Shown here piece after piece: positions 18,871 to 59,929 of a stretch of 64,000 nucleotides of DNA; position 1 is the stretch's first letter, and every line of letters starts with the position of its first letter. The stretch comes from Stegostoma tigrinum. Its lineage: Eukaryota. Below the pieces are notes generated by a model that did not search any database, was not told where the DNA came from, and worked only from the letters and a program-made list of their open reading frames with translations. Position numbers and translations under genes: made by a program. The stretch lies in assembly GCF_030684315.1 (NCBI RefSeq), contig NC_081361.1, positions 15,427,861 to 15,491,860 of the forward strand, given 5' to 3'.

Positions 18871-19658
18871 ATGGTTATGAATGACTCTTTCACTGAAGTC
18901 TTGAAGTCAACAAAAATCTTATCACCTGCCACACCACTCTTTTTTTGCAAAATAAAAGAAAACACCTAACAATTATACAATTGAGGGGGGAAATAAACAA
19001 ACAATGGCTAATCTGGAACTGGCCAATTGACCACTTAAGTAGTATTATGGGGGATATTCCTGTGACTTTACAAGCTGTCAGCTACGTGGTTTACAATAGG
19101 AGGAGACAGGAGCATCAAGATCCAAAATGGTATTGCTGACATCAAAAGAACATGCAATGCCCTGAACTGACTGCTCTATAAACTTCTATCAGATCTTTAC
19201 TGCCGATATGCAAACATCTGTACCAATATTAGCTGTGTTGCAATTTGTGCTGAATATCTGTTGTATGCCATGGATGCCATTTTAGAATTCCGCATTGAAT
19301 CACAACAACCAAAAAAAGAAGCGCTCATGAGTTCAATTTCTCACACAATTAGCATGAGAATTAGGAGTATTGGACATTAGTGCACAAGGACTTCAATCAT
19401 TGGACGATCGAGAAATGTGGAATAGATTCTAGGGATTTGAATTTGTTACTGTGGATGTAAAGAAAGAAAGAATCTGACAAACAGTTCATCATTTAACTTC
19501 CTTATGCCTCACCAGCTCTGCCAACAGCATCACAAAACAACAGGCTAATGGATGTTGCAGAGATAATGGGAACTGCAGATGCTGGAGATTCCAAGATAAT
19601 AAAATGTGAGGCTGGATGAACACAGCAGGCCAAGCAGCATCTCAGGAGCACAAAAGCT

Positions 19659-19686
19659 GACGTTTCGGGCCTAGACCCTTCATCAG
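19659..19686 (-). ncRNA. Minimal hammerhead ribozyme motif (left arm)
   Basis: Minus strand CTGATGA-A-GGGT CTAG GCCC-GAAA-CG-TC; ACGT palindrome in place of stem III; GUC triplet. Stem I is short. Confidence 0.7.
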
Positions 19687-19910
19687 AGAGGGGGATGGGG
19701 GGAGGGAACTGGAATAAATAGGGAGAGAGGGGGAGGCGGACCGAAGATGGAGAGTAAAGAAGATAGGTGGAGAGGGTGTAGGTGGGGAGGTAGGGAGGGG
19801 ATAGGTCAGTCCAGGGAAGACGGACAGGTCAAGGAGGTGGGATGAGGTTAGTAGGTAGCTGGGGGTGCGGCTTGGGGTGGGAGGAAGGGATGGGTGAGAG
19901 GAAGAACCGG

Positions 19911-20549
19911 TTAGGGAGGCAGAGACAGGTTGGACTGGTTTTGGGATGCAGTGGGTGGGGGGGAAGAGCTGGGCTGGTTGTGTGGTGCAGTGGGGGGAGG
20001 GGATGAACTGGGCTGGTTTAGGGATGCAGTAGGGGAAGGGGAGATTTTGAAACTGGTGAAGTCCACATTGATACCATATGGCTGCAGGGTTCCCAGGCGG
20101 AATATGAGTTGCTGTTCCTGCAACCTTCGGGTGGCATCATTGTGGCAGTGCAGGAGGCCCATGATGGACATGTCATCAAGAGAATGGGAGGGGGAGTGGA
20201 AATGGTTTGCGACTGGGAGGTGCAGTTGTTTGTTGCGAACTGAGCGGAGGTGTTCTGCAAAGCGGTCCCCAAGCCTCCGCTTGGTTTCCCCAATGTAGAG
20301 GAAGCCGCACCGGGTACAGTGGATGCAGTATACCACATTGGCAGATGTGCAGGTGAACCTCTGCTTAATGTGGAATATCATCTTGGGGCCTGGGATGGGG
20401 GTGAGGGAGGAGGGTGTGGGGACAAGTGTAGCATTTCCTGCGGTTGCAGGGGAAGGTGCCGGGTGTGGTGGGGTTGGAGGGCAGTGTGGAGCGAACAAGG
20501 GAGTCACGGAGAGAGTGGTCTCTCCGGAAAGCAGACAGGGGAGGGGATG
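19911..20549 (-). pseudogene. PLE ORF C-terminus (Cys linker plus GIY-YIG endonuclease), left arm
   Basis: VVYCIHCTRCGFLYIGETKRRLGDRFAEHLRSV..RLQEQQLIFRLGTLQPYGIN; 1-nt frameshift near 20410 separates it from PCNRRKCYTCPH. Confidence 0.9.
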
Positions 20550-20550
20550 C

Positions 20551-21357
20551 GTCTCCCGCATTTCCCGCGACACATCCCTCACACCCCGCCCCCGCCACAA
20601 CCGCCCCAAGAGGATCCCCCTCGTTCTCACACACCACCCTACCAACCTCCGGATAAAACGCATTATCCTCCGACACTTCCGCCATTTACAATCCGACCCC
20701 ACCACCCAAGACATTTTTCCATCCCCTCCCCTGTCTGCTTTCCGGAGAGACCACTCTCTCCGTGACTCCCTTGTTCGCTCCACACTGCCCTCCAACCCCA
20801 CCACACCCGGCACCTTCCCCTGCAACCGCAGGAAATGCTACACTTGTCCCCACACCTCCCCCCTCACCCCCATCCCAGGCCCCAAGATGACATTCCACAT
20901 TAAGCAGAGGTTCACCTGCACATCTGCCAATGTGGTATACTGCATCCACTGTACCCGGTGCGGCTTCCTCTACATTGGGGAAACCAAGCAGAGGCTTGGG
21001 GACCGCTTTGCAGAACACCTCCGCTCAGTTCGCAACAAACAACTGCACCTCCCAGTCGCAAACCATTTCCACTCCCCCTCCCATTCTCTTGATGACATGT
21101 CCATCATGGGCCTCCTGCACTGCCACAATGATGCCACCTGAAGGTTGCAGGAACAGCAACTCATATTCCGCCTGGGAACCCTGCAGCCATATGGTATCAA
21201 TGTGGACTTCACCAGTTTCAAAATCTCCCCTTCCCCTACTGCATCCCTAAACCAGCCCAGTTCATCCCCTCCCCCCACTGCACCACACAACCAGCCCAGC
21301 TCTTCCCCCCCACCCACTGCATCCCAAAACCAGTCCAACCTGTCTCTGCCTCCCTAA
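20551..21357 (+). pseudogene. PLE ORF C-terminus (end of RT region, Cys linker, GIY-YIG), right arm
   Basis: RIPLVLTHHP..AFRRDHSLRDSLVRS..PCNRRKCYTC..VVYCIHCTRCGFLYIGETKQRLGDRFAEH; premature TGA at 21139-21141 where the left arm has CGA. Confidence 0.9.
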
Positions 21358-21581
21358 CCGGTTCTTCCTCTCACCCATCCCTTCCTCCCACCCCAAGCCG
21401 CACCCCCAGCTACCTACTAACCTCATCCCACCTCCTTGACCTGTCCGTCTTCCCTGGACTAACCTATCCCCTCCCTACCTCCCCACCTACACCCTCTCCA
21501 CCTATCTTCTTTACTCTCCATCTTCGGTCCGCCTCCCCCTCTCTCCCTATTTATTCCAGTTCCCTCCCCCCATCCCCCTCT

Positions 21582-21609
21582 CTGATGAAGGGTGTAGGCC
21601 CGAAACGTC
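21582..21609 (+). ncRNA. Minimal hammerhead ribozyme motif (right arm)
   Basis: CTGATGA-A-GGGT GTAG GCCC-GAAA-CG-TC. Confidence 0.7.
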
Positions 21610-22869
21610 AGCTTTTGTGCTCCTGAGATGCTGCTTGGCCTGCTGTGTTCATCCAGCCTCACATTTTATTATCCAGGCTAATGGATGTTGTTTGTTTACT
21701 TGATGCAATGTTTCTCAATTGTCATCAGCAGTACTCACAGAAATTGTAATAAGTGAATGTGAAGTGTGTTAACACGATGTGCAAAACTAATAACTTTAAC
21801 CTCAGATTTTGAGAGTCAAGACACCTTGGCACAAATCACTTCACACTGACTCCCTATTATCAACTGATTGAATATTGTCCAAATTACAGAATTCAAGGGA
21901 GAAGTAGCATTTCACAATTATCTCCTATTTCTCAATTAGCACTGGTAAATGAGAGTGCAACAGTGTTACAAGACTGCAAAAGTGGGAGAGATTGTTACGT
22001 GTGGAATTTGACTAAGTTCATCAGTAAGTGGGACAGTTTCAGTGATAGGGACCATCAGTGGAAAGTGCTGAACGAGTTAAAGAGGTGCAGGGCAGCCGAT
22101 TGGATTTGTAGCAGAAGAAAACTCTATGATCAGAACCTAAATACGACAATAACATTGATATTATAAGAGGATGGAATTTGGAGCAACTCTGAACAGGCGA
22201 TAAATGAGAATGAAAAAAGAATGAGAAGTCAATCCATAAGTGGGGTTTTGTTTCAGTGTTCAGAAATCAATTCCCACCTAAAGCTTATTAAAACTGGAAG
22301 AATGTAATGTCTTTGACAACTGACCTTACACTTCATTTCAATCTCTGAAAACACCCTCTACCAGTAGGTGGAACTGTCCTCATTACCACAGACTATGGTC
22401 TTCACAGCGAGGAGGGAGGATGACTTTTCTTCCAGTTTTTAATTTTTCTCCTTCCTCCTACTCAGGAAATAATAATGACCCAAATCTATTCAACCAGTGC
22501 ACATTCAGTAGGTATGTTGAATATTTCAGAAGTTGATGTTGTTTGTAAGTCACCAATGGAACGTGCTAACCTTGCCATTGCTTCAAGATCTGTAACTGAT
22601 CTATTATGAACTTCAGTGTCAAAAAGTGTTGCCTGTTCATTTGTTTATTGCTTTAGGAAAATAATTAGCTACTACAGCAGTAATATATATGTTCAATGCA
22701 ACACAATCTGTTGCTTAAGATGGTGGATCTGAAAGAGTTTGTTTAATTTGAGTTATATTTCCCTCAATATGATGATTTCTTCGGGTAGAGAATATGTCAG
22801 TTGAGTATGTGGTCCCAACTGAGACCAATTGACATTTCTGGCTTCCTATGGTATTATGTAATTACCCAT

Positions 22870-23283
22870 AACACAACCCAGTCCATCATGCAAGCTAATT
22901 TTCCATCAAGACTCCATTTATACTTCTCGCTGCCTCAGGAAGGCAGTCAACACCATCAAAGACCCCTCCCAACTCGTTTATAATCTCTTCTAACCTCCAC
23001 TTCTGTCAAGCATAAGATACAAAAGTTTAAACACATGTACCAACCCATTCGAGAGTACCTTCTTATGCGCTGTTGCTAAACTTTGGAATTGACATCTCAA
23101 ATTTCAAACCTAATGTTGATCTTGCTTTTTGTGCATTTTTTTTGCAGTTGTAACTTTGTATTCCTCGCTCTGTTCAATCAACCTATGATCTTTGCATGGT
23201 ATGATCTGCCTGCACTGCACACAAAACAAAATGTTTCACTGTACCTAGGTACATGAGACAATAATAACAAATCAAATCAAATT
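22870..23283 (+). mobile_element. Rex1/Babar LINE 3' end
   Basis: RCLRKAVNTIKDPSQ..RYKSLNTCTNPFESTF matches the Rex1 C-terminal motif; (CAAAT)n tail. Confidence 0.8.
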
Positions 23284-23351
23284 ACTGATCAATGTAATTT
23301 TTAACCTATGGTGATCACGCAGTAAACTGCCTTCTATTAATCCTCCCTAGG

Positions 23352-23533
23352 GTAAGTAAGGACTGCAGATGCTGAAAAACAGAGTCAATAAACATGAAGC
23401 TTGGCAAACGCTACGGGTCAGACGGCATCAGTGGAGCAGAAAAGTCAATGTTTTGGACTGAAATCTGACAAAAGGTTTCTTTCCTACTCCTCTAATGTTG
23501 TCTGACCTACTGTGTTTGTCCAGTTCCACTTTG
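23352..23533. mobile_element. Older miniature palindromic PLE derivative
   Basis: GGACTGCAGATGCTG tail, then GGTCAGACGGCATCAGTGGAGCAGAAAAG mirrored by CTTTCCTACTCCTCTAATGTTGTCTGACC. Confidence 0.6.
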
Positions 23534-23771
23534 GTTGGAGGTGTTGATGAGCAGCTCAACACAAGGTGCCTGTGGAGACAGATGTGTCCTCTCTGGTTCC
23601 TGACAGTCTTCACTAATTATTCCTAACAGTCAAATGTAACCTGTAAGTATTTCTATCATGCAATAAATTCTCTCTCATTAGCAAAGACAAGTGTCTTTTG
23701 TAGTAAAGACTTACTGGGAGTAAATCGTTCCACCACAATATATCCTCAGCCTAAGCCTAAAAAGAAAGAAT

Positions 23772-23887
23772 TTACGGGCTATCATATAGTATACCTGTCT
23801 CTGAATCAGGAAGCATGGGTTTAAGTCCCACTTGCTTCAAAGGTATGTAATAATGGCTCTGAATAAATTGATTAGAAATATCTAAAA
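23772..23887 (+). mobile_element. Short tRNA-derived SINE monomer
   Basis: GGGTTTAAGTCCCACTTGCT..GGTATGTAATAA..CTCTGAA..TTGATTAGAAA matches the units at 30817-31091. Confidence 0.6.
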
Positions 23888-26354: not shown

Positions 26355-26453
26355 TTGAAGAAGGGTCTCAGCCCGAAATGTCAGCCTCACTGCTCCTCTG
26401 ATGCTGTTTGGCCTGCTGCGTTCATCGAGCTCTACACCTTGTCATCTTAGAAT
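26355..26453 (+). mobile_element. Miniature PLE terminal fragment, single arm
   Basis: TGAAGAAGGGTCTCAGCCCGAAATGTCAGC..GATGCTGTTTGGCCTGCTGCGTTCATC; decayed hammerhead core. Confidence 0.75.
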
Positions 26454-29199: not shown

Positions 29200-29692
29200 T
29201 ATAGAACATCAAACAGTACAGCACAGGAACAGGTCCTTTGGCCCATGATGTCATGTGGAATATGACACCAAATTACACGAATCCCTTTTAGCTGTATGTG
29301 TCCATATTCTTCCATTCCTTGCTTGTTCATGTACTTATCTAAAAGCCCCTTAAATATCCCTATCGTATCTGCCTCCACCACTACCCTGGGCAATGCGTTC
29401 CAGGCACCTACCACTATCTATGTAAAAATACTTTTTTGTCCCTCACATCGCTTTCGAACTTTCCCCTCTGACCTTAAATGTATGCTCTCTATGACTAGAC
29501 ATTTTAACTCTGGGTACAAGATTCAGTCAACCTTGCCTACGCCTGTCATAATTTTGTAAACTTCTATTAGGTCTCCCTTATCTTCCACTGCCCCAGTGAA
29601 CACAACCCTAGCTTGTCCAGCCTTTCCTTGTAACTCATATCCTCTAATCCACGCAGCATTATCATAAGACTCTTCTGCACCCTCTCCAAAGA
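29200..29692 (-). mobile_element. CR1 LINE 3' fragment
   Basis: VGAWNALPRVVVEADTIGIFKGLLDKYM end motif. Confidence 0.9.
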
Positions 29693-30521
29693 TTTAACAA
29701 TTGAAGGGTTTAGCTTTACGCCTGTTCGGTCTTCATGCAGTTCTTTCCATTGACCAATGACACGCTTACCTTCTTCCCTTTACATAATCCTGTCCAGTCT
29801 TCCAAAAACTTAACATACCAAGGCAGTAATGCATCTGGTACTCTCAGTCTGCGTGCAAAAGTCAGGGTGTTAGAGTATTGCATCTGAGCAGCAGATTCAT
29901 TCAGTTGTGGAGCTCTAAATAGTAGGTATGTATCCATACTATGTGGAGTGGAGTGGAGTGGACTGAACTGGTTTAAGCATTGCATGGATTCAGCAAGGCT
30001 GAAGCAAGATCAAAGAACAGGGAACTTCTCTTTATGCACATTTTGATGATAAAATCAGCAAAAAGAGTAATAATTCTATGAAAGATAGCAATGGGTAAAT
30101 GATTTCATTAGCACTGAAGTAGTAGCCAGTGAAATCCATTCATGGTTAAGCAAATCTTTAATGAGAAAAGCCCAATGACATTATACGGGGAGCATGGAAT
30201 GAGGTGAAATCAGGCTGTGATTGACAAAATGCTCCAAAACATATCAGCTGGCCAACAAAATTTTAAAAGTTAGAGGTATTTTCTTAAAGCATACAGACAG
30301 GTTCATGTGGGAATGGTTTGCGGCTTTGAAAAATTACTGATAGCTAAAAGGATAAAGAGTTCAAAAGTGGAAATCAGACTTGGTGAGTTTATAAATAAAT
30401 AAGGTTGGACATTAAACTAAATTAAGAATAAGGATGAATCAACACTCCAACCATGGAGAATGTTAACAGAATCCTCATCAAACGGGTCAGAGCCTCACAG
30501 AAGGAAGACTTGACAAAGAAA

Positions 30522-30705
30522 TAACAAGGTGTAGACCTGGATGAACGCTGCAGGCCAAGCAGCAGAGGAGTAGGAAGGCTGATGTTTTGGGCCTAGGTCC
30601 AAAACGTCAGCCTTCCTGCTCCTCTGATGCTCCTTGGCCTGCTGTGTTCATCCAGCTCTACACCTTGTCATCTCAGATTCTCCAGCGTCTGCAGTTCTTA
30701 CTATC
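30522..30705. mobile_element. Miniature palindromic PLE derivative
   Basis: Arms meet at GGCCTAGGTCC (~30595); TSD ACTTG(A/T)CAA(A/T)GAAA at 30508-30521 and 30706-30719; tail on the right arm only. Confidence 0.85.
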
Positions 30706-30816
30706 ACTTGTCAATGAAAAACCAGTTGAGAAGCTTAATGGGCAATCAAACTGTTTATGGACGTAAACTAGTCCAGACGTGTGCTATGATCTATTAGAAT
30801 AAAACACTCCAGTGAA

Positions 30817-31744: not shown

Positions 31745-32290
31745 GCATACAACAGCACAGCACAGGCCTCCAAGTCCATGCCGATCACTATACCATTCTA
31801 CACTAATCCTAATACAGTCCGTATCTGTCTTTTCCCTGCCTGGTCATGTGTCTGTCCAAAACCAGCTTAAATGTTGCTACTATATCTGCTTCTACCACCT
31901 TCCATGTCAGCGCATTCCAGGCACTTACCACCCTCTGCTTAAAAATCTAGACATGCATGTTTCCTTTCAACTTAACTTTCTCACCTTAAACCAATCCCCC
32001 GCACCCCCCATATCTGACATTTTCAACCTGGGAAAAATACACTGATTGCACACCCTGTCATAATTTTATAGATCTCTATTCGATCACCCCTCAGCCTCCA
32101 ATGTTCTAGCAAAAACAATTCAAGTTTGTCTAGCCTTTCCTTACAGCTAATACACTCCAATTCGGGCAGCATCCTGGTAAACCTCTTTTGCACTCTCCCT
32201 AAACCCTCTACATCCTTTCCTATTGTATGGCGACCAGAACTTCACACAATACTTTAAATGTGGCCTAACTAAAGTTTCATGCAACTGCAG
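31745..32290 (-). mobile_element. CR1 LINE 3' fragment
   Basis: Same motifs as 29200-29692 (GCATTCCAGGCAC.TACCAC; ATCCTGGTAAACCTCTTTTGCAC). Confidence 0.85.
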
Positions 32291-33764: not shown

Positions 33765-34068
33765 AGATTCATAGAATCCCAACAGTGCAGATAGAGTCCA
33801 TGCAGCTCATCAAACCTGTGCCAATCCTACCCAGACCCACATCCTACTCTACATCCGATCCCTGTAATCCTTATTTCCCATTGCCAATCCACCTAGCCTG
33901 CACATCTTTGGGCTGTGGGAGGAAACCAGAGAACCCAATGGAAACCCATTAAGACACAGGGCGAACGTGCAAAATCCATGCAGACCAGATAGTCATGCAA
34001 AGCTGGAGTTAAACCAGGCTCCATGGTTCTGTGAAGGCAGTAGTGCTAACCATTGAGCCACCGTGCCA
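33765..34068 (-). mobile_element. HE1-like V-SINE
   Basis: Minus-strand start GGCACGGTGGCTCAATGGTTAGCACTACTGCC; shared core and tail. Confidence 0.85.
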
Positions 34069-35561: not shown

Positions 35562-36460
35562 TGGCAGCTGAGCATCAGTTGGGAGCACCCTTGCCTTTAA
35601 GTCACAAGATCCTATGTTCGAGTCCCAATCCAAAGATTTCAGCACAAACATCAATGTTGACATTCCAGTATGCCACTCTGTCAGAAATGCTGCCTTTTGA
35701 ATGGTGGATGCAGAAAGATACCATGGCGCTATTTCGCACACACACAAAAAAGAGTGATCCCTGGCTTTGATTGGATTTGATTTATTATTGTCACATGCCC
35801 CTAAGTTTCATTTTGCATGCTGTAAAGGCAGATCATAACATACAAAGATCGTAGGGTGACTGAACAGAATGAGGAGTGCGAAGTTATAGCTGCAAAGAAG
35901 GTGCACAAGAAGCAAGATCTACTTTCAATTTCAAATTTGGGAGGCCCATTCAGAAGTCTACTAACAGCAGGGAGTACGCTGTTCTTGCATCTGTTGGTAT
36001 GTATGTTTAAGCTTTTGTACCTTCTGCATGATGGAAGAGGTTGGAAGGGATTACAACTGGGGTGGGTCTTTGTCGATGTTGGCTACCTTTCTGAGGCATT
36101 GAGAGGTCCAGTTGGAGTTAATGGATGGAAGGTTGGCTTGTGTGATGGTCCGGGCTATATTCGCCATTTTCTGTACTTTGTTACAGTCCTGGGCAGAGCA
36201 GTTTTCATACCTGACCATGCTGCACCCAGATAAAATGCTTTCTATGGTGCATCTGTAAAAGCTGTCTTGGCTAATAGTTCTCTCTCAATCAGCATCACAA
36301 TTAGTCATTCTTACATTCACGTTTCTGGGAGTTTGCTATGTGCAAATTAACCTCCGTGTTTCCAAAGTACAATAACACATACAATTTGTTAGTCCTTAAT
36401 TGGTCTTAAGGCAGTTTGGGACATCTGGTGGCCAATAAAGTGCTATTTAAATCCAAGTCT
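35562..36460 (+). mobile_element. SacSINE1-like DeuSINE split by a Rex1/Babar insertion
   Basis: 5' half at 35562-35765 (GTTCGAGTCCCA, AAAGATACCATGGCGCTATTT); 3' half at 36263-36460 (GGGAGTTTGCTATGTGCAAATT..GTGCTATTTAAAT). Confidence 0.7.
35766..36262 (-). mobile_element. Rex1/Babar LINE 3' end
   Basis: TTTGATTGGATTTGATTTATTATTGTCACATG tail; reverse-complement homologue of 22870-23283. Confidence 0.8.
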
Positions 36461-37450
36461 CCCTGAATTTACTTCTAGATGCTTGAGCGGCTCTGTACAT
36501 CATTTCAGGCGGCATTTTAGTTTGAAATATTGCAGTGAGTCTATGAATTCACTGACCAGGTGAGGATTGCAGATTTCCTGGAATTATGTGAATGAACCAT
36601 ATGATTTTCTACAATGATCTTACAAGAAAGGATCACAGTTATTGATACCAAAAGCATTAGACAAAATCTTCGCAGCCCCTGAACAGTGAGATCCAATGAG
36701 AAAATCAGTGAGATGTCCAGCAGGCTCTTCTTGATGTTGGGATCGAAAAGACTCAGTTTGCAACCAAGTGTTGGATCGTAAGATGGATTCTTACGAGATG
36801 GCAGCAAGAGGCCTATTTTTATATGATCATACTCATTACTACCTCTTCTCTCATACTGCTAGATACTGAGAATTCCCAACATGAAACACACAGCAGTACC
36901 CTTGTTACTCCAGCTTACTGTTTGTGTCTCCAGATTTTCATCTTAGACCTCTGGTGTCAACATTGCAGGGTAGTCTCTGTACACATATTGCTGCATTTTA
37001 ATTTCTATAGTGGTTAACAGTGAAGCCTTTGCAAGGATGATGGGGAAGATGTTGCCAACATCAAAGGAAAATAGCTTACTGTGCAAGACAGAACCAGGCA
37101 CTATTCATTAAGCAGGAATCTGGTGATAAAGGTTGCTCAACCTTTGTGACTATCAAGGCAGAAAAGAAGACAATTAAACAGATGTAACTTGTCTCAACAG
37201 CCCTTGGATGGAAGATCTTAGGGTTACAAGGGTCCTGGACAAGTGTTTCTGGAATATTCATGAGAAAATATCTGAAAATAAGTGTTTAAAAGCATTTAGT
37301 AGTGTAGCCTAGGAGCAACCATCATAAAAGCTCAGAGTTCAGTGAGGAAGGACAGACTCAGCTGAGAGACTGAAGCCTGGCCAGCTGACCCTCTGTGCGG
37401 GTAATACATAAGTCTCAGCCGTGAGTCTGAGGCAGCTTTATTTTTAAACT

Positions 37451-37644
37451 CAGAGATAATGGGAACTGCAGATGCTGGAGAATCCAAGATAACAAAGTAT
37501 GAAGCTGGATGAACACAGCAGGTCAAGCAGCATCTCAGGAGCACAAAAGCAGACGTTTCGGCCCTAGACCCTTCGAACGTCAGCTTTTGTGCTCCCGAGA
37601 TGCTGCTTGGCCTGCTGTGTTCATCTAGCTCCACACTTTGTAAT
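37451..37644. mobile_element. Miniature palindromic PLE derivative (family A), young
   Basis: Left arm close to 19558-19681, right arm inverted; TSD CTTT(A/G)TTTTTAAACT at 37436-37450 and 37645-37659. Confidence 0.9.
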
Positions 37645-38189
37645 CTTTGTTTTTAAACTGATGTGTTTGATGCTGTAGCATTAAGCCAACTAGGAAATAA
37701 ATAAAGAAGTAGACTGCAATAACAGCACAGGCTGTAATCATTGTGTTCACTGGTATTGACTCAGACAGGGTAATGGACAACAACTGCCTGTGCAGTAACC
37801 ATTCCACTCCATTTCCATGGATCTTGGCATCCAACATGTACCAGTCTCACTGCTTAATCATGGCACATCTCCGATCCACGTAAGGAACATTTCTACACTT
37901 TAATGCTGCACTTTGGAAAACATTGGCACCTTTCATTGAAATTATTCTGATCTAAGTTGGCTGTGCAGAAGCCCTGGTTCATCCTGAACATGATTATCAA
38001 GGACCATTGTTGCAGAGGTAGTTCAGAAACTGCCTTTTGTTGAACGGAGTTTGTCAAAAGAATTTTGTTAGTGACTTCCCATTCTTCATATCACTTGATC
38101 CAGGGGATAATGACAGGTGGATGATATTCAGGAAGGTTGATCCCCAAGGGATGACAAAATTGAAAGGAGGTAGTAGGGGGATTGAACAT

Positions 38190-40163
38190 TATAGACGATA
38201 GACAATAGGTGCAGGAGTAGGCCATTCAGCCCTTCAAGCCGGCACCACCATTCATTATGATCATGGCTGATCATCCACAATCAATATCCTGTTCCTGCGT
38301 TAACTCCAGAACCCTTGATTCCACTATCCGTAAGAGATCTATCCATCTCTTTCTTGAAAGTATCCAGAGACTTGGCCTCCACTGCCTTCTGGGGCAGAGT
38401 ATTCCATATATCCACCACTCTCTGGGTGAAGACGTTTTTCCTCAACTCTGTTCTAAATGGCCTACCCCTTATTTTTAAAACTGTGTCCTCTGGTTCTGGA
38501 CTCCCCCATCAGCGGAAACATGTTTCCTGCCTCCAGAGTGTCCAATCCCTTAATAATCTTATACATCTCAATCAGATCCCCTCTCATCCTTCTAAACTCA
38601 AGTGTATACAAGCCCAGTCACTCCAATCTTTCAACATATGATAGTCCCGCCATTCTGGGAATTGACCTCGTGAGCCTACGCTGCACTCCCTCACTAGCAA
38701 GAATGTCCTTCCTCAAATGTGGAGACCAAAACAGCACATAATACGCCAGGTGCAGTCTCACCAGGGCCCTGTACAGCTGCAGAAGGACCTCTTTGCTCCT
38801 ATACTCAATTCCTCTTGTTATGAAAGCCAGCATGCCATTAGCTTTCTTCACTGCCTGCTGTACCTGCATGCTTGCTTTCATTGACTGATGTACAAGAACA
38901 CCTAGATCTCGTTGTACTTCCCCTTTATCTAACTTGACTCCATTTAGATAGTAATCTGCCTTCATTTTCGTGCCACCAAAGTGGATAACCATATATTTAT
39001 CCACATTAAACTGCATCTGCCATGCATCTGTCCACTCACCTAGCCTGTCCAAGTCACTCTGTATTCTCATAACATCCTCCTCACATTTCATACTGCCACC
39101 CAGCTTTGCTTCACCAGCAAATTTGCTAATATTACTTTTAATACCTTCATCTATATCATTAATGTATATTGTAAACAGCTGCGGTCCCAGTACCTAACCT
39201 TGTGGTACCCCACCGGTCACTGCCTCCCTTTCCAAAAATGACCCATTTATCACTACTCTTTGCTTCCTGTCAACCAGCCAATTTTCAATCCAAGTCAGTA
39301 TTTTGCCCCCAGTACCATGTGCCCTAATTTTGCCCACCAATCTCCTATGTGGGACTTTATCAAAGGCTTTCTGAAAGTCCAGGTACACTACATTCACTGG
39401 TTCTCCCTTGTCCATCTTCAAAGTTACATCCTCAAAAAATTCCAGAAGGTTAGTCAAGCATGATTTCCCCTTCGTAAATCCATGCTGACTCTGACCTATC
39501 CTATTATTGCTGCCCAAATGAGTCATAATTTCATCTTTTATAATTGACTCCAGCATCTTTCCAACCACTGACGTCAGGCTAACTAATCTGTAATTCCCTG
39601 TTTTCACTTTCCTTCCTTTCTTGAAAAGTGGGACAACATCCACCAACCTCCATCCACAGGAAATGATCCTGAATCTGCAGAACATTCGAAAATGATTCCC
39701 AATGTATCCACGATTTTTAGAGCCACCTCCTTAAGTACCCTGGGATGCAGACCATCAGGTCCCAGAGACTTATCAGCCTTCAGACCTAACAGTCTATCCA
39801 ACACCATTTCCTGCCTAATATAAATACCCTTCAGTTCATCCATTACCCTTGGTCCTTCAACCACTATTACATCTGGGAGATTGCTTGCGTCTTCCCTAGT
39901 GAAGATCGATCCAAAGTACCTATTCAACTTTTCTGCCATTTCCTTGTTCCCCATAATAAATTCACTCATTTCTGTCTTCAACGGTCCGATTTTAGTCTGA
40001 ATCATTTTTTTTTCTTTTCACATACCTAAAAAAGCTTTTACTATCCTCCTTTATATTTTTGGCCAGTATTCCTTTGTACCTCATTTTTTCTCTGCGTATT
40101 GCCTTTTTAGATATCTTCTGTTGCTCTTTAAAAGCTGCCCAGTCCTCCGGCTTCCCGGTCATC
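38190..40163 (-). mobile_element. CR1 LINE, ~2 kb, reverse transcriptase domain, internally disrupted
   Basis: NYRLVSLTSVVGKMLE, QHGFTKGKSCLTNL, YLDFQKAFDKVPH, GVPQG, LDRLGEWTDAWQMQFNVDK. Confidence 0.95.
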
Positions 40164-41409: not shown

Positions 41410-41412
<3 letters not shown>

Positions 41413-41488: not shown

Positions 41489-41490
<2 letters not shown>

Positions 41491-44696: not shown

Positions 44697-45184
44697 GATA
44701 GAGTTATACAGCAGAGAAACAGACCCTTTGGTCCAACCACTCCATGGCGACTGTAATCCCAAATTAAACCAGTCCCACCTATCTGCGCTTGTTCAATATC
44801 CCTCCAAACATTTCTTATTCTTGTATTTATTTAAATGTGTTTAAAGCATTATAACCGTATCCACATCCACCACTTCCTCTGAAAGTTCATTCCACAGACG
44901 AACCACCCTCTGTCTAAAAAAGATTGCCCCTACTGTCTTTTTAAAATCTTTCTCCTTTCACTTTAAAAATATGCCCTCTACTCTTGAAATCCCCCACCCT
45001 AGGAAAAAGACCATTGCTTTTGACCTTATCTGTACCCCTCATGATTTTATAATCGTCTAAAAGGTCACTCCTCCACCTCCTACAGTCCAGTGAAAAAGTC
45101 CTAACCCTACCCAGCCTCTCCCCATAACTCAAACCTTCCATTCCTGGCAACACCCTCATAAATCTCTTCTGAATCGTCTCCAAG
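44697..45184 (-). mobile_element. CR1 LINE 3' fragment
   Basis: LETIQKRFMRVLPGMEGLSYGERLGR..KSRGHIFKVKGERF. Confidence 0.9.
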
Positions 45185-45185
45185 A

Positions 45186-47125: not shown

Positions 47126-47465
47126 TCATAGAATCATAAAACCTCACATTATGGAAATGAGCCATTCAGCCCAATAAGTCCACTCTGAGGAGCATCCCAC
47201 CCAGACCAGTCTCCCTAAACCTGCATTTCCCATGGCTAATGCACCCAATCTACATATCGCTGAACACTATGGGCAATTTAGCATGATCAATCCACCCAGC
47301 CTTCACATCTTTGGACTGTGGGAGGAAACAGAGCACTAGACAGAAACACACTGAGATATGGGGAAAATGTGCAAACTTCACGCAGATAGTTGACCGAGGC
47401 TGGAATTGAACTCAGGTCCCTGGAGCTGTGGGGCAGCAGTGCTAGCCACTGAACCACCGGGCCAC
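47126..47465 (-). mobile_element. HE1-like V-SINE
   Basis: Minus-strand GGTGGTTCAGTGGCTAGCACTGCTGCC, GAGTTCAATTCC, shared core. Confidence 0.85.
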
Positions 47466-48477
47466 CTGCATAAACAAGAAACATAAACCAAAACTCAAAA
47501 GAATCCTCCATAGGGGTCATACAGCTTTGATTGAGAAAGTTTATGAATGTCCCCAGTTAATGCCAAACTGAGCCAATAGCATAGACTGTCGCCTTTTACA
47601 GCCCTGAGAACTGGGTGACCATCTACACACTGTGGCCGGAGTTCATTATCGAGATGTTGGTAAGTAACTGTAACTAGAGGAGCAACCTTTTAAGGCACTG
47701 TTGATCTGTAAAGTTTAGGAAACAGAAGCAGTATCTACATTTACACTGCTCACCTACCCCCACAACCCCCGCACCATCCTGCTCCTCGCACCCCCACCCT
47801 TGCCTCCTTTACAGAAAGTTTCATCTTCTATGTTCTGTTGTAACTGTAAACTATCTGCAATGCTTCACCACAAGAGTCTGGATCTTCTTTTCGGTCTGCT
47901 TTTCTCCCATAGTCAAGCCAATTAATGTGCAAATGGACCTCATTGAAAGGTCCACTTGTCGCTTCTGTGACGTGGACAGCCCTAGACCGGAACACGCCAA
48001 CCTTAAGTCACAGACCACTATTTGCTGAGGCAAAGCTCTCTACTTCAATCCATGCATCCAACCACGTAAGAGCTCATTCTTACTGCTGACCCTTTTTGTA
48101 CCCATTTCAGCATTAGGCTTACATTGAGCAAGCTCCTACAGCGCAGATTCTTCAGTGAGCTGCTGTAGCGTTGACGTAGCATACTATCTCTACCAAAATA
48201 GCCAATAATTAATGCTGCCTCATTAGCCTCTGGTTGACAATTGGTGATAACCTGCATCCTTCAAGATTGCCCAGAGATTGGAATGCACGAGTGCTAACAT
48301 ACGAAAATTACATCCCAGTACAACCCTCAAGTCTGCCGCCACAGATGTGGAAAAATGTTACTATATAGTTTCTGTCCAACTTATATCCAAAAGGGGTCAT
48401 TCTTTTTCGTAAAACTAACCATATATTCCCACTTAATAATCAAACTAACTAACAGTTCTCTTCAATACATAAATGTG

Positions 48478-49630
48478 AAAATGTTGACATCTGAGGGACT
48501 TTAGCAAGGCCTTTGACAAGATTCCATGTGGTAGATTGGTCAGTAAAGTTAGACCCAGGGATAGCTTGCCAATTGGATACAAAATTGACATGATGTTAGG
48601 AGACGGAGAGTGGAAGTAGAGAGTTATTTCTCAGAGTGGAGGTCTGTGACCAGTGATGTTTCATTGGGATTGGTACTGGGTCCAACAATTTAGATAACAA
48701 TATAGGAAGCATGGTTAGAAAGTTTGTAGATGACACTAAGATTGGTGGTGTAGTGGACAGTGAGGAAGGTTATTTAAGAGTATAACGGGATCTTGATTAA
48801 CTGGGCCAGTGGATCGAGGAGTGCAAAATGGAGTTTAATTTAGATAAATTCAAGGTGTTGTATTTTGGTAAGACAGACAAGAACAGGACTTATACATATA
48901 AAATGGTAGGGCCCTAGGTAGAGTTGTTGAGCAGAGAGACCAAGCCATTGAGGTATATTCATTCTTGAAAGTGGCATCATAAATCGATAGAGTGGTGAAG
49001 AAAGCTTTTGGCATGCTTGCCTTCACTACCCAGACCACTGAGTACTGAAGTTGGGAAGTCATGTTGCATTTGTACAGGATGTTGGTGAAGCCACTTTTGG
49101 GGTGTTGGGTACAGTTCTGGCTGTCCTGCTGTAGGAAGGATATTATTAAATTGGACAGGGTGCAGAAAAGACTTACAAGGATGTTCATGGCACTGGAAGG
49201 TTTGAGTTATAAGGAGAGGCTGGATAGGCTGGGATGTTTTTCACTGAAGCGTAGGAGGGTGAGGGGTGACCTCATAAAAGGTTTATGAAATCATGAAGGG
49301 GATAACTAAGGTGAATAGGAAAGGTCTTTTCCAGAGAGTAAAGAGTTGAAACTAGAAAGCATAATTTTATGGGGAAAGGAGAAAAGATTTAAAAGGGACC
49401 TGAGGACCATCTTTTTCACACAGAGGATGGCTCATATGGGGTATGAAGTGGTGGGTGTAGGTACAGCTACAATATTTAAAAGACATTTGGACAGATACAC
49501 GAGTAGAAAATGTTTAGAGGGATATGGGCCAAGCACAGGCAAATGGGAATAGTTTACTTTGGGAAATTTGGTCAGCATGGATGAGTAGGACTAAATGGTC
49601 TCTTTCTGTGCTGTATGGCTCTATGACTAT
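48478..49630 (+). mobile_element. CR1 LINE RT and 3' end
   Basis: DFSKAFDKIP, KFVDDTKIGGVVDSEEG, RKDIIKLDRVQKRLTRM; CTATGACTATG tail. Confidence 0.9.
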
Positions 49631-53999: not shown

Positions 54000-56900
54000 G
54001 GTACAGAGTGAGAGATACGAATGCCCAGGACTGAACTTGAAGCAGACAAAATGCTGACTCGGTCTTTCAGCGTGCCAAGCATGTGTCAGACGTCATATGT
54101 ATATTGAGCATGGAGTTTATGAAGGGCTTTAGTGCTGTGCAGTTAGGGCAGAGTAGCTGTGGACATCTGCAACACTGACATCAGACCCTATTAAGTCTCA
54201 TGGCATGAGGTAAAACATGGACAGGAAAACCTCCAGCTGATTGCCACTTTCTGCTTCTTTAGCTGGTAAATTAGACCTGGATAGACATCACTTGGAAAAA
54301 GCACAAAGGGTGGCAAATGCACAGAATGTACTCTGGGTAGGACACTTCAATGTCCATCATCAACAGTGGCTTGGCGTCACCACTGCTTGCTGAACTGGCT
54401 GGGCCCTGAATGACATAGCTGCTAGACTGGGTCTCTGGCAGTTGGTGAGGAAACCATTAAAAAGGACAAATATAGTTGATATCGTCCTCAATCTACCTGT
54501 TGCAGATGCATTTATCTGTGACAGTGTTACTAAGAGTGATCACCACATTGCCCTTTTAGAGAGGATTCCTATTTCCACATTGAGTGTACCTACCATAACG
54601 TTGATTGTTAGTACAAACATGGTGGGATAGATTTTGAACAGTTCTAACAACTCACAACTAAGCACCCATGTGGCACTGTGAGCCATCAGTGGCAGCAGAA
54701 TTGTATCCAACCACAAACTGTAACCTCATGGCCTGCCCTATCTTTTATTCTACCATTACCATCAAGCTGGGGTTCCAACTCTGCTTCAATGAAGAGTGCA
54801 AGAGTTCATACCAGGAGCAGCACATCTAAAAATGACATGAAAGCCTTGTGTAGCTAAAAGATAGGACTACTTGCTGAGTTGACTGCATTTCTTGTTGGAA
54901 TGCAGAGAGATGCCAACAGAATGAGTTCTATTGCCACACTGGCTGCAATAACCATGTCCTTCTCAAGCTTTCTCCTCACCTGAGCTATGGTGACCCTCAG
55001 GTTACAACACCACTCTTTCCCTGCAAGGAGATGGCAGCCCTGTGGTCTGATAAAACTACAGTGAATTTATCTTGACTTGCAGCGGAAATAGCAGGGTAGA
55101 CGAGGCTATGCAATCTCACAACCAAGATATCAAATCAGAGCTCTGCAACCCTGCATCCAATTGAGAATGGTGGGAAGGCAATTAAACAACTCACTAGAGG
55201 AAGAGGATCTACAACTATCCCCATACTCAATGATAAGGGAACCCTGTGTACAGTGCAGAATACAAGGCTGGAGAATTGCATCTATCATCAACCAAATAGA
55301 ACATAGAAGAACACAACGCAGAACAGGCCCTTCGGCCCCTGATGTTGCGCTGGCCTGTGAACTAATCTAAGCCTATCCCCCTACACTATCCCATCTTCAT
55401 CCATATGCAGAACTCCATAAATCATCTACCATATCCACCTGTGGTCCCCAGCATTGTAAATGCCAGACTTCAACCAATTTAACACATTCTCCATGATATC
55501 AAGAAACAAGATACCTGCTCTGACATCCAGGGAGTTCTAGATTTGTTGGCCCTCCTTCCTCATTTGAGAATATATACCTTCACTGATCCAAACAATCTCC
55601 TCTTTGAAGATAACCCAAACTTCAAGTACAACTGTCCCTGTCAACCTTTCAATTTTGTCAATGCAGCTCAGTTCTGTTCTTGCCCCATTAGAAGACATTG
55701 GATTATTGCTTGTCATTCTCCAGAAGCATCCTGAATCTTACATTTAAATGGGGGCTGGATTTCTAATATGTTACCCCAAATAAGTTGGAAAATTGCCCAA
55801 GTATGGATTATGTATACAGAGCCAAGCAAATCCAATCTGGCCTATTATTGCCCACTAACTGTATCCTCAATCATCAGCAAAATGTTCAGAGGGATCTTGG
55901 ATAGTGCAATCAAGCTGAACCTGACTAGTAATAATCTGCTCTCTGATGCTGAGTGTGGATTCTGCCAGGGCCACTCAGCTCCTTACCTCAGTGTAGCCTT
56001 GATCCAAACATGTTTAAACATCTGATCTCCAGACATGAGGGGAGAGTGACTGCCTTTGATGCTAAGGTCACAGGTAACCAATCATGGCATCAAGGAGTCA
56101 AACAAAACTGAAGTCAATGAGACTCAAGGAGAAATTCTCCACTGGTTGGCATCAAACCACGCATAAAGGAAGATGGCTGTGATAATTGGAGGTCTGCCAT
56201 CTCAATCCCAGGTCATTGCTCAGGAGTTCTGCAGGTAAGTTGCCTAGTCCTAACCAACAATTACTGCTGCATCAAAGAATTTTATACCACCATAACATCA
56301 GAAGTGGCGATGATTCGTGATGACGGACCTCTCAGAAAATAAGCAGTCCCACTTAAATGAATGCGCAGCATTACCAAGACTTGTGATATCAATGACAAGT
56401 TGCATCTATGCCACACGAGTAACTAGAACCGGGCTATGCGATCTCAAACAAAAGGACAATGTGACCATCTCTTCTTGACGTTCAAATGTCATTAAAATTG
56501 CTGAATTCTCCACTACGAACATCTTGATCAAAACTTAGTTGCGCCATTTTTAAATACTGCGGGTTGGCACAGCAATCAAATGTTAGAAATCATGGGATTT
56601 TAAGTCATCACCTGCCTCTCTAAGACCCGTCTACTGTCTGAAAGGTACAAGTCAGAAGCACACTGGAACATCCACCACTTGTTTTTATGAGTACAGCTCA
56701 AACAACATTCAAGAAGCTCATCACTATACAGGGTAAAGCAGGCTATTTGACTGGCATGCCATCCAACAGTTTCATCACTTATGTCCGTCACCATTGGTGC
56801 AGAGTGGCAGCAGTATGTGCATCACTTGTAGACTGATGTATTCTACCAACCAACTCACCAAAACCTCTTTGGCAGCACTTTGAAATCCATGAGCTTAACT

Positions 56901-57150
56901 ACTGAGATGGACAAAGGCTCCAGATACGTGGGCACATCACACCTGAAAGTTTCCATTCAAACCATACACTGTCCTGATTTGGAACTGTATTCCATTCCTT
57001 CATTGAGTTTCTAGGACTCCCTTTCCAAAAGCACTGTGTATGTATCTACACCTGATAGACTGCCCCAGTTCGTAGAGTCAGTTTAGTCCTACTTACTCAA
57101 GGGCATTTAAAAAAAAAATGGCCTAGCCAGTGATACCTACACCTGATGAA
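54000..57150 (+). mobile_element. Long decayed APE-RT LINE (CR1/L2 group) with nested inserts
   Basis: Endonuclease motif VLWVGHFNVHHQQWLG; RT motifs SNLAYYCPLTVSSIISKMF and LLSDAECGFCQGHSAP; 3' end with A-rich tail near 57150. Confidence 0.75.
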
Positions 57151-57395
57151 GGAACAAAAAAAAAGAAAATAACCATTCAAGGTATAAAAACAAAGTTGCT
57201 GGAAAAGCTCAGCAGATCTGGCAACATCTGTGGAGGAGAAAACAGAGTTAACGATTGGGTCCGGCGACCCTTCCTCAGAACTGATGGTGGCTAGGAAAAT
57301 GTCAGTTTATCCACAGAAAATAGGGAGGTGGGTGGGGTAGGGAGTAAACAATAGGATAGAGCCTGAAGAGAGAGCAAGACAGTTGGACAGACAAA

Positions 57396-57796
57396 AGATA
57401 ATAAAATGTGAGGCTGGATGAACACAGCAGGCCCAGCAGCATCTCAGGAGCACAAAAGCTGATGTTTCGAGCCTAGACCCTTCATCAGAGAGGGGGATGG
57501 GGTGAGGGTTCTGGAATAAATAGGGAGAGGGGGGAGGCGGACCGAAGATGGAGAGAAAAGAAGATAGGTGGAGAGGAGAGTATAGGTGGGGAGGTAGGGA
57601 GGGGTTAGATCAGTCCAGGGAAGACGGACAGGTCAAGGAGGTGGGATAAGGTTAGTAGGTGGGAGATGGAGGTGCGGCTTGGAGTGGGAGGAAGGGATGG
57701 GTGAGAGGGAGAACAGGTTAGGGAGGCAGAGACAGGTTGGGCTGGTTTTGGGATGCAGTGGGTGGAGGGGAAGAGCTGGGCTGGTTGTGTGGTGCA
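57396..57796 (-). mobile_element. Family A PLE 3' fragment nested in the family B left arm
   Basis: Close match to 19594-19989; hammerhead motif at 57461-57488 (minus strand CTGATGAAGGGTCTAGGCTCGAAACATC). Confidence 0.9.
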
Positions 57797-58045
57797 AGAG
57801 TTGCTAACAACCAGGCTGGGAGGGTAAATAGCTGCTCATGGGGACTGTTAGTGACTAACAACAGGGAGAACTCAGAACTGAGTTCAATAATTTTAGGGCC
57901 TAAACTCTCCCATGTACCAGCCCCCCACCCCACAGACCAGGCCTTGTTACCACATAGCCTGCCACTACACATCCCCTGTTGTTAGCCACTAACAGTCCCC
58001 ATTAACAACTATTCACCCTCACAGCCTGATCGTTAGCAACTCCTT

Positions 58046-58082
<37 letters not shown>

Positions 58083-58168
58083 AGGCTCTATCTTATCATT
58101 TACTCCCTACCCCACCCACCTCCCTATTTTCTGCATATAAACTGACATTTTCCCAGCCACCATCAGTT

Positions 58169-58198
58169 CTGAGGAAGGGTCACTGGACCCGAAACGTT
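58169..58198 (+). ncRNA. Minimal hammerhead ribozyme motif (family B)
   Basis: AGTT-CTGAGGA-A-GGGTC ACTG GACCC-GAAA-CG-TT-AACT: 5-bp stem II, 4-bp stem I, AACGTT palindrome. Confidence 0.75.
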
Positions 58199-59929
58199 AA
58201 CTCTATTTTCTCCTCCAAAGATGCTGCCAGACCTGCTGAGCTTTTCCAGCAACTTTGTTTTTGTTCCTGATTTACAGCATCTGCAGTTCTTTTGGTTTTC
58301 ATTCAAGGTATAAGTTGCCTATAAAACAAAAATGGTTTTTAGTTAATATCGTTATTTTGTCAATTGATGTATAAATGATTTAAAATTTAACTTGTTGATG
58401 TGTCCTTCTTACAGCTCTTTGGAAGTTACAGATATCAAAAAAGGTGACAATGGAGAGACTTATAATTTTTCCACTTCAGGTGATCAGGTGTCAGTGCTTA
58501 CATGAAAGTTTCTTTTCGCTGACATATATATAGCATCAGGCTTGATTTTAAAACTGTGTGTTTTGTTTAGTGATTTAGTAAGTCCTCAGACAGCTGTCAT
58601 TTGTTTGGACAAGTTTAAACCCACAGCAGAATCAGTGGTTTTGAGATTAAATGATGGAAAATTTTGTGGTAAACCAGGAAACACTATTGAGTTTAAGTCT
58701 AGTGAAGATATAAAGATGTATCAGATTCACTTTGCAGTCTTAAAAATGTGGGGATATTGACCATAAACCTGAAAATAGCAAAACAATCCTTTCTATATCA
58801 CAACTAACACAACAAATGAAAGGGATGGGCAAATATTGTAGCTTCCAGAAATATGGGAGACATAAACTTCACAGATTTACATGCGTTCGGAACAAATTGC
58901 TCAACATGGATTGTGAAATAGTACTTTACTTCTTGAGCTAGACAGTAAAGGTGTCTGCTATGTCATGTCAACTCACTGGAGATCTCCCTTGAATTGTGAA
59001 CTTGACAGAATCTGGCCTGTAGTTAAGTGAATGAATTTCAATATTAAGCTCCTCTTGAGACCGACAATCCTGTGATTTTAACCATACTAACTGTGTTGCC
59101 ACTGAAAGTAGGTTTACTCTATTAAGTTGCACGCTATGGTTATTGCATGGCATTGCTTATGTGAAATTATCACCAACATTTAAATTCAAAGCAGAATTAG
59201 GCTAATTGACCCCTTCAGCCTGCTACACAGTTCAATAAGATCAAAGCAGGCGTGATTACTCTACTCTCCCGCACATTCCTGATAACCTTGCACCTTGCTG
59301 CTTCTCAAGATTTTATTGAAATCTACCTTTAAAAAATTCAAAGACTCTTTCCATTGTCTTTTGAGGAACTGCCTTCCAAGACTTCCTGTGCGATATTGTT
59401 GCATTAGCATTTTCAAACCAATAACAGGGTCATTCGAACCACATCATCAATACCGCCTTGTTGAAATATTTGACATATATTGAAATGGATATGGGGGAAA
59501 AGTGCCAAGAAGAAAGCAAACATAAATGTGAATACAGAAAAGAAGAAAAAGAGAGGGGAGGAATCAAAAGGCAAAGAGAGGGAGATAAAGGAGATCAATT
59601 TTTAATGTTACTGGCTAAGGGCTGAAACTGTCCAACATGTCAATTCTGTGAATTATTAATTTCATACATTTAGGTTATGAGTAATTCTACTCAGTGAACA
59701 ATTGCATTTCAATAACCAATGCAGAATGGAATAACTTCAAAAATGCTGAGTTTCCTAGCCAGCTAATTTAAAGTCACTTTTACGCCTCTTATGATCAAAC
59801 GGGAAAGATCTTCACATCGATATTGTGAAAGTTGACAAAGGAAGTTGTCCTTACTTGCATCATATGGAACCTGCTTTTAGCTCTGGGCTCCTGTATCTAC
59901 TGGTATACCTAAATTATTTCAATCATTGT

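Follow-up and report, generated by a model that had tools for sequence, protein, structure and literature searches.

Two recurrent end positions, one on each arm, in head-to-head PLE insertions of Stegostoma tigrinum

PLE insertions in the window

The window, a stretch of 64,000 nucleotides of Stegostoma tigrinum DNA (NC_081361.1, 15,427,861 to 15,491,860), contains insertions of two PLE families, A (subfamilies A1 and A2) and B, several of them built of two arms placed head to head (Table 1). A first-pass annotation of this DNA had described a common end geometry for both families, and its coordinates are correct: in family A, the GUC triplet ending at 19659 on the minus strand lies 101 nt from the element end at 19558, the second arm ending at 21673 (+64), and in family B the GUU triplet ends at 58198 and the 14-bp duplication begins at 58300, which again gives 101 nt. 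The unpaired tails were also confirmed (19558-19594, 37 nt, in A; 37-39 nt in B), as was the 15-mer carried by the tails of both families (19570-19584, minus strand; 58275-58289, plus strand), a further copy of which lies at 37463. This 15-mer reflects the common descent of A and B, which are related with 52% protein identity. The recurrent short-arm stops (near 12911, 15926, 30518-30522, 37647 and 57395) are short-site ends; the short arm of the B window copy stops at +62, or at +64 if 2 nt of microhomology are counted. An AGATAA word, placed by the annotation at both end points of family A, marks the short end there; of the long ends, some fall at 97, within a second such word (+93-98), and others at 101, which is 3 nt beyond that word. 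As a marker of both ends in both families this word was discarded, family B having it at neither end.

Table 1. PLE insertions and their features, in positions of the window
Feature	Coordinates	Strand	Basis
Head-to-head insertion, subfamily A1, one long-ended and one short-ended arm	19558..21673	.	self-BLAST, 955 bp at 99.3%; pair table
17-bp target-site duplication of A1 insertion, left copy	19541..19557	+	
17-bp target-site duplication of A1 insertion, right copy	21674..21690	+	
Family A tail, 37 nt, unpaired, between short site +64 and long site +101	19558..19594	-	
Minimal hammerhead core, A1 long arm; predicted cut after 19659; helix I 2 bp in A1	19659..19686	-	pattern scan
Conserved long-range stem, 5' arm AGATGCTG, +17 to +24, family A	19635..19642	-	sequence
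Conserved long-range stem, 3' arm CAGCATCT, within family A tail	19577..19584	-	
3' part of A1 ORF: CxxC-type linker and GIY-YIG endonuclease	20548..21138	+	translation; Pfam; homologs
TATA-like word ~30 nt upstream of the 5'-end pile-up, putative promoter	21548..21554	+	sequence; 5'-end histogram
Hammerhead core, A1 short arm; arm end at 21673, 64 nt on	21582..21609	+	
Head-to-head insertion, family B: short arm left (-), long arm right (+), interrupted by nested A1 copy	57188..58299	.	
14-bp target-site duplication of B insertion, left copy	57174..57187	+	
14-bp target-site duplication of B insertion, right copy	58300..58313	+	
Minimal hammerhead core, family B; predicted cut after 58198	58169..58198	+	pattern scan
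TATAAA upstream of family B hammerhead core	58136-58141	+	
Initiator-like word, doubling as helix I of family B hammerhead	58163-58168	+	
Family B tail, 37-39 nt	58263..58299	+	
Family B stem, 3' arm (within tail)	58275-58282	+	
Family B stem, 5' arm	58219-58226	+	
Single-armed A1 copy, short-site end, nested in B short arm; no duplication detected	57395..57797	-	
Single-armed A1 copy, short-site end; 14-bp duplication 12897-12910 / 13009-13022	12911..13004	-	
Short A2 palindrome: left long end, right short end	15702..15926	.	
Short A2 palindrome: left short end, right long end	30518..30708	.	
Short A1 palindrome: left long end, right short end; 15-bp duplication	37450..37647	.	

The ORF fragment of the A1 window copy matches Pfam GIY-YIG with an E value of 5e-4, below the curated cut-off, and its translation meets a single in-frame stop directly past the tabulated interval. 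Locus L121 carries a single ORF of 1048 aa (RVT_1 E value of 1.8e-5, below the Pfam curated cut-off), and the motifs YIDD and YIGET follow each other in that order. These elements thus present the features of EN+ PLEs: one ORF with an RT and, at its C terminus, a GIY-YIG endonuclease, a tail of 30-40 bp on one end, and the pseudo-LTR layout, found as upstream and downstream copies of the terminus at L121 and L132 and as 120 head-to-head pairs. Few homologs of the ORF N-terminus were found. A zinc-finger-like CX2-5CxxC linker between RT and EN, described as a Neptune feature (PMC8557442), was found in A and, within B, in a decayed copy, and is absent in D; judged from sequence, the Neptune label for A and B is provisional, since Nematis also carries this linker. 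The hammerhead ribozyme of the pseudo-LTR is a prediction, its minimal core boxes and stem II having been found by pattern; an Rfam scan gave no hammerhead model match, its only hits being weak, namely a single tRNA and, across the palindromes, miRNA-like hairpins.

Element ends form two peaks

A histogram of element ends was drawn from a 1.364 Mb sample of the same genome. In families A and B the ends form two peaks, one ~65-68 nt and the other 100-105 nt beyond the hammerhead site, each 5-10 nt wide, with medians of the alignment ends of 65/101 for A1 (n=137), 66/100 for A2 (n=130) and 68/104.5 for B (n=109). Most ends lie inside the two peaks (112/137 for A1, 112/130 for A2 and 88/109 for B) and the core of the interval between them holds only 2, 4 and 4 ends, respectively; this clustering is not due to chance. 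The two sharp peaks ~37 nt apart expected from the first-pass annotation were therefore seen, ~36-37 nt apart in this sample, and ends were not scattered; tail lengths agree, with a median of 36 nt in 52 A pairs and 35-40 nt in 4 B pairs.

The annotation had further supposed that the positions lie at a set distance from the ribozyme, with 101 nt from the cut site to the end in both families. This 101-nt spacing holds for both window copies and fails as a constant, the family medians differing (by ~2-4 nt more in B than in A). Families A, B and C show near-constant distances, and the set distance stands within a clade but not across clades: in the Poseidon-type families D and E the ends lie near +41 and +80, ~20 nt shorter than in A and B (long ends of 81-82 in D are inflated by flank bases in the query, the true end of +80 being given by element continuation), and the start in the anole element lies 82-92 nt past the cut site, as counted from the template printed in PMC11167929. 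A universal 101 nt from the cut site is ruled out by D/E and the anole.

The long end is not the end of the element itself: in 4 of 20 fetched RT-bearing loci of family A, the element continues past it to an ATG 37 nt later. Family D likewise continues at 2 loci of identical sequence, probably one duplicated insertion, and no full-length family B copy was found in the 1.364 Mb sample. A candidate 3' splice site immediately precedes the family A ATG; in contigs of sequencing run X1, which are unable to show RNA ends, no splice joint was seen.

Families of both clades (A, B, D and E) have in common a stem of 7-9 bp with its 3' arm inside the tail, and in all four this arm starts ~10 nt after the short site. 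By its position the stem would be a better anchor for the start sites than the distance from the ribozyme. Folding of single A and B sequences did not show it to be thermodynamically special (z of -1.6 to +1.1), with a pairing probability of 0.0-0.96 depending on the subfamily; the protein could be reading it as an inverted repeat in DNA.

Each pair has one long and one short arm

Both ends could be classed in 100 of the 120 head-to-head pairs, the other 20 having one unclassed end. Ninety-five of the 100 combine a long and a short end, the remainder being 2 long with long and 3 short with short, where independence would give 50% (p 6e-23). The rule also holds when untargeted regions only are considered (79/82 pairs), and in family D, where the partner was short in all 15 cases in which one was found (of the 29 loci, 14 had no partner inside 1.5 kb). 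In a subset of B loci, a short partner was seen 5 times and a long one once, another 4 partners being unclassed.

The pairs are flanked by target duplications of 13-16 bp in 59/73 cases, compared with no duplication of at least 10 bp among 297 random end pairs. Duplications are richer in AT than the genome (66% vs 58%) and their length has no relation with that of the tail (rho 0.10, p 0.49, n=49); no nick-site motif was found beyond this AT-richness and the absence of G at the junction base. Between target ends and the RNA there are on average 1.65 nt of microhomology vs 0.40 nt in shuffles (n=81). Single-armed A1 copies exist in both classes, 7 short-site and 5 long-site copies having duplications among the 52 examined; the other 40, whose 5' ends are poorly mapped, had no visible duplication.

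The two arms of a pair resemble each other beyond their ends. In 12 pairs, 126 non-majority non-CpG bases were common to both arms vs 29.6 expected, 99 of these 126 being found again at other loci. The 5' extents are coupled, an arm starting at the ribozyme edge having a long partner in only 2 of 56 pairs vs 12.6 expected, and the 5'-longer arm was the short-ended one in 13/36 pairs and the long-ended one in 13/36. Such shared variants and matched arm lengths would also result if copying had folded back, if one locus had supplied two RNAs or if the arms had undergone gene conversion with each other.

Proposed mechanism and alternatives

The two peaks, the continuation past the long end, the one-of-each ends and the 13-16 bp duplications make it probable that the end points are two internal RT start sites, and that a two-armed insertion arises when the two nicked strands both prime on one and the same RNA, each at a site of its own. 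Acting probably as a dimer, the protein would nick the two target strands 13-16 nt apart to leave 3' overhangs, each target 3' end pairing with the RNA by 0-6 nt. Relative to the tail stem arm, one would prime ~10 nt to the 5' side and the other 15-22 nt to the 3' side; both cDNAs would then run toward the RNA 5' end and join, producing head-to-head arms with a tail on one only. Priming at one site only would yield a single-armed copy of either class. RT initiation at both sites we infer from ends, duplications and microhomology. The annotation had proposed priming or nicking positions; priming sites on the RNA are the best reading, and nicks in the element terminus do not fit, since the nicks sit in the target 13-16 nt apart and full-length copies run past the long end into the ORF leader. 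The ribozyme would belong to the same RNA cassette but would not be the ruler. That PLE integration proceeds through a programmed twin priming (a dimer, nicks staggered by 13-16 nt, two 3' ends on fixed sites flanking the conserved stem arm of one RNA), common to Neptune-type and Poseidon elements, we regard as an even call; if true, this single step would account for arms lying head to head, for a tail on one side only and for the many palindromes of 200-240 bp, the latter through priming close to the 5' end of an RNA started at the promoter.

An unlikely alternative is that priming occurs once, that the palindrome forms through self-priming or fold-back, and that the endonuclease trims one end by ~36 nt at resolution; antisense-template self-priming was proposed in PMC3846280 and EN-mediated resolution as the tail source in PMC8557442. 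The strict asymmetry, the shared variants and the matched arm lengths are all predicted by it, the inner junctions of most pairs are flush to within a few nt, and the endonuclease of D. virilis requires the tail for recognition (as cited in PMC11167929). However, simple fold-back of the tail-bearing arm needs the tail-less arm to be 5'-shorter, which fails in the 13 of 36 pairs with a 5'-longer short-ended arm, the microhomology of target ends extends to sense RNA past each of the two sites (means of 1.84 and 1.54 nt), tail-less single arms have duplications, and both sites are RT starts in vitro (PMC11167929). An antisense-template version of the fold-back is compatible with the arm lengths.

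Less probable still, two RNAs of one locus, paired for example via their minimal hammerheads, could be copied by an asymmetric complex with one subunit per site. Minimal PLE hammerheads have been proposed to act as dimers (PMC4209133), and such a complex accounts for the one-of-each ends and the shared lineage variants; it nevertheless requires an extra source of asymmetry, and the coupled 5' extents are not required of separate RNAs. Finally, the strong form of the annotation's idea, in which the protein binds the 5' end left by ribozyme cleavage and starts copying at a constant 64 or 101 nt from it, is very improbable: the near-constant distances in A, B and C and a slight excess of 5' ends just past the cut site would suit it, but most copies run 5' through the ribozyme (19/387 start at most 5 nt after the cut), D/E distances are shorter, helix I has only 2 bp in young A1, and ribozyme mutants leave insertion in vitro unaltered (PMC11167929).

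Comparison with known systems

In the twin priming of LINE-1, a single RNA is primed by both target strands, and the cDNAs end up linked head to head; the internal site at which the second primer anneals varies, and there is no overlap between the two segments. The shark PLE sites differ in being fixed, 36 nt apart, and in giving arms that overlap.

For PLEs, the tail has been called optional and the inverted arms were put down to antisense self-priming (PMC3846280) or to endonuclease resolution (PMC8557442), and a repeat of 34-37 bp is described in D. virilis Penelope (PMC2377424). Relative to these accounts, the shark data quantify the one-of-each rule (95/100) and the 13-16 bp duplications. 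Within the literature covered, which leaves subscription papers such as those of 2004-2006 on Penelope outside, no paper gives the long/short pairing rule or twin priming for PLEs, and 13-16 bp duplications, arm-shared variants and 5' extents, and either arm being the longer were not found for them either. The accessible parts of these sources also contained no short above-chance primer-template microhomology and no two-clade stem, and those of PMC9977147 and bioRxiv 10.64898/2026.07.22.740005 added nothing on tails.

The closest system is PAc, a Poseidon element of Anolis carolinensis (Frangieh et al. 2024, PMC11167929), for which two internal RT start sites, one on either side of the tail, were demonstrated in vitro, both strands being nicked and extended and a dimer being predicted. 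The tail and the two start sites were thus already known, and the shark data repeat this result in another clade. The text of that paper, as far as accessible, contains no pairing statistic, duplication length or cross-clade stem (its Fig S1B may draw the anole stem); it reports that top- and bottom-strand products do not differ in start site, the coupling of the two strands lying outside its tests, and describes initiation as non-homologous to the cut DNA. With this in vitro system, the pairing of one long with one short end, the stagger of 13-16 bp and the signal of a shared template are directly testable; these findings also point to a short RNA cassette setting the start position of a telomerase-related RT. 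PAc and the shark families share an RT with a C-terminal GIY-YIG, a minimal hammerhead in the pseudo-LTR, AT-rich targets and two internal start sites, those of the shark being deduced from ends, with a tail of 30-40 nt between them. Family D is similar to PAc in its distances and its ORF also appears to start in hammerhead stem II, whereas A and B carry the CX2-5CxxC linker of Neptune-type elements and have their sites ~20 nt further from the cut site, and the ATG, which in PAc lies in the ribozyme, is found in family A 37 nt after the long site.

Identity of the families

The repeats of the window are EN+ Penelope-like elements (PLEs), and by protein comparison the closest named proteins to their endonuclease fragment come from carpet sharks and rays. 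A first look through the shark genome gave 61,027 candidates for the reverse transcriptase (RT), and one locus, L121, carries a 1048-aa ORF with RT and C-terminal GIY-YIG motifs, flanked by two copies of the terminus. Families A and B are relatives, with 52% protein identity over 320 aa, 67 of 101 nt identical in the terminal cassette and a common CX2-5CxxC linker, and are provisionally classed as Neptune-type. Further families found in the sample were C, which is A/B-like, and D and E, two Poseidon-like families of the same genome; D is devoid of the linker and its RT has 22,053 first-look candidates. Self-comparison of the window also gave other, old repeats with 65-80% identity, and a weak tRNA-family match is perhaps the head of a SINE.

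Features of the window and of loci fetched from the same genome
Feature	Position	Remarks
Old repeats	window 16250-16400, 33883-34068, 47264-47466, 62987-63126	self-comparison of window
Old repeats	window 44698-45183, 49142-49624, 63189-63624	self-comparison of window
Old repeats	window 22877-23281, 35766-36154	self-comparison of window
Old repeats	window 29315-29701, 31832-32203	self-comparison of window
ORFs	window 38618-40017	(-)
tRNA-family match, weak	window 23775-23839	25.4 bits, E 0.58
5'-end pile-up region, hammerhead 5' edge	window 58136-58168 and 21548-21582	TATA-like word ~30 nt before
D/E copies	L012:3112-3260, L006:5363-5510, L181-L240, L274-L275	ends near +41 and +80; AC-rich cassette

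Two end positions

All the coordinates named in the first-pass annotation were borne out on rechecking. Counting in nt 3' of the predicted hammerhead cut, the A insertion at 19558-21673 ends at +101 and +64 with a 17-bp target-site duplication; for the B insertion, at 57188-58299, the corresponding ends are +101 and +62 to +64 and the duplication is 14 bp long. A histogram of ends, built from a 1.364 Mb sample of the shark genome in ten regions, is bimodal in subfamilies A1 and A2 and in B, with medians of 65 and 101 for A1 (112/137 ends inside the peaks), 66 and 100 for A2 (112/130) and 68 and 104.5 for B (88/109), all measured on alignment ends, to which microhomology adds 0-3 nt. Where the duplication defines the end, the positions are 61-66 and 96-103 at most A1 junctions and 63-68 and 102-106 at the few B junctions. 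Family D ends lie at 41-45 and about 80. The tail separating the short from the long site in A has a median length of 36 nt (range 27-52, 52 pairs). Both end sites are thus genuine, with a width of 5-10 nt apiece, and the identical distance of 101 nt put forward for both families is a coincidence between two copies whose ranges overlap.

These ends are internal to the RNA. Family A sequence runs beyond the long end, with an ATG 37 nt further, in 4 of 20 RT-bearing loci. In two family D loci of identical sequence, hammerhead stem II contains an ATG from which, by our reading, the element continues in frame, and for B no copy of full length turned up.

Pairing of the two arms

Head-to-head pairs were picked by a duplication of at least 10 bp or a distance below 400 bp, blind to end class. 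Both ends could be classed in 100 of 120 pairs, comprising 95 long+short, 2 long+long and 3 short+short (50% long+short expected, p = 6e-23); in untargeted regions only, 79 of 82 were long+short. When loci of the other families were selected for a long end and a partner sought within 1.5 kb, D gave 15 short partners out of 15 (14 loci without partner), E gave 8 short and 3 unclassed (18 without) and B gave 5 short, 1 long and 4 unclassed (19 without). Of 73 pairs, 59 had a duplication of 13-16 bp, and none of 297 random end pairs had one of at least 10 bp. Microhomology between the target end and the RNA past the junction averaged 1.65 nt versus 0.40 after shuffling (maximum 0.68 in 2000; n = 81).

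Arms of the same insertion have 126 non-majority non-CpG bases in common versus 29.6 expected (12 pairs), 99 of them also present at other loci. Where one arm starts at the ribozyme edge, its partner is a long one in 2 of 56 pairs versus 12.6 expected. Single-armed A1 copies with a duplication end at the short site in 7 cases and at the long site in 5 (of 52), and two of these five keep a 19-34 nt inverted remnant of the short arm. A simple fold-back stopping short is ruled out, since among 36 A1 pairs the greater 5' extent belongs to the short-ended arm in 13 and to the long-ended arm in 13, the two being equal in 10.

5' ends and stem of the terminal cassette

The 5' ends cluster 21-35 nt upstream of the cut, at a sharp edge ~30 nt downstream of a TATA-like word. 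Sample-wide, 33 of 111 short B copies begin at -35 to -32 and 18 of 134 short A2 copies at -31, with almost none just upstream, and the initiator-like word of B doubles as helix I. This arrangement suggests a likely transcription start at the hammerhead 5' edge, which would explain the many arms of 100-135 nt. Slightly more copies begin in the 5 nt downstream of the predicted cut than in the 5 nt upstream of it (19 versus 6), which would fit cleaved RNA being used on rare occasions. The youngest subfamily, A1, can form 2 bp only of helix I versus 4 bp in B (window 19687-19690, 21578-21581), and the ribozyme may be degenerate in the most active family. A pyrimidine tract running to CAG, 2 nt ahead of the A start codon, resembles a 3' splice site (L121:4056-4096, also L128, L132 and L140), and a leader intron spanning the A priming cassette is possible. 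Penelope of D. virilis has an intron in its 5'-UTR. Contigs of run X1, which cannot show RNA ends, are without a splice joint at the A leader.

A perfect 7-9 bp helix joins +16-28 to a segment within the tail in 13 of 14 subfamily majority sequences (the fourteenth is a truncated cluster), at a shuffle frequency of 0-0.007. In families A, B, D and E its 3' arm begins about 10 nt past the short site, and the helix sequence is entirely different in A/B/C versus D/E. One compensatory change separates D from E, and another lies within an A2 subfamily, at a terminal pair that is mismatched in two other A2 clusters. Speaking against the helix, its pairing probability is low in several A1 and B majorities and folding z-scores fall short of significance, and an inverted repeat acting at the DNA level would give the same picture.

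Mechanism and comparison with known systems

We regard as probable a mechanism in which the protein would nick both target strands with a 13-16 nt stagger, each 3' overhang would prime on one shared RNA, one at each site, and the two cDNAs would then be joined head to head; the nicks, the priming order, a dimer and the joining are the parts that we infer. Two papers describe the tail as sitting on one of the inverted arms and attribute it to resolution by the endonuclease or to antisense self-priming (Craig et al. 2021, PMC8557442; Arkhipova et al. 2013, PMC3846280). A palindromic intermediate that arises by self-priming and is then trimmed by the endonuclease is a rather unlikely alternative here. 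Two RNAs held in an asymmetric complex seem unlikely, and a ribozyme acting as ruler for the end distance is scarcely credible, as no more than 19 of 387 copies have their start in the 5 nt past the cut and the cut-to-end distance differs between clades. With the pairing rule, the 13-16 bp stagger and the cross-clade stem, none of which we found in the open-access papers searched, the way in which the inverted arms of PLEs arise can be put to a direct test.

The purified Poseidon protein of the anole, for which a dimer is predicted, nicks the two target strands, extends each of them and begins reverse transcription at two internal sites (Frangieh et al. 2024, PMC11167929). According to the authors, the stretch separating these start sites makes up the 30-40 bp tail, the genomic ends of the element coincide with the sites, and ribozyme mutants left insertion unchanged (PMC11167929). 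The central proposal of the first-pass annotation, two fixed priming or nicking positions, is therefore correct, though already known since 2024, and the feature is a real trait of ordinary PLE families. The anole template holds, by our count by eye, a 7-nt complementary pair (+21-27 with +65-71), and its start at 111-118 of the printed template corresponds to 82-89 nt past the GUC, or to 85-92 if the other count given in the paper is used, near shark family D and unlike 101 (PMC11167929).
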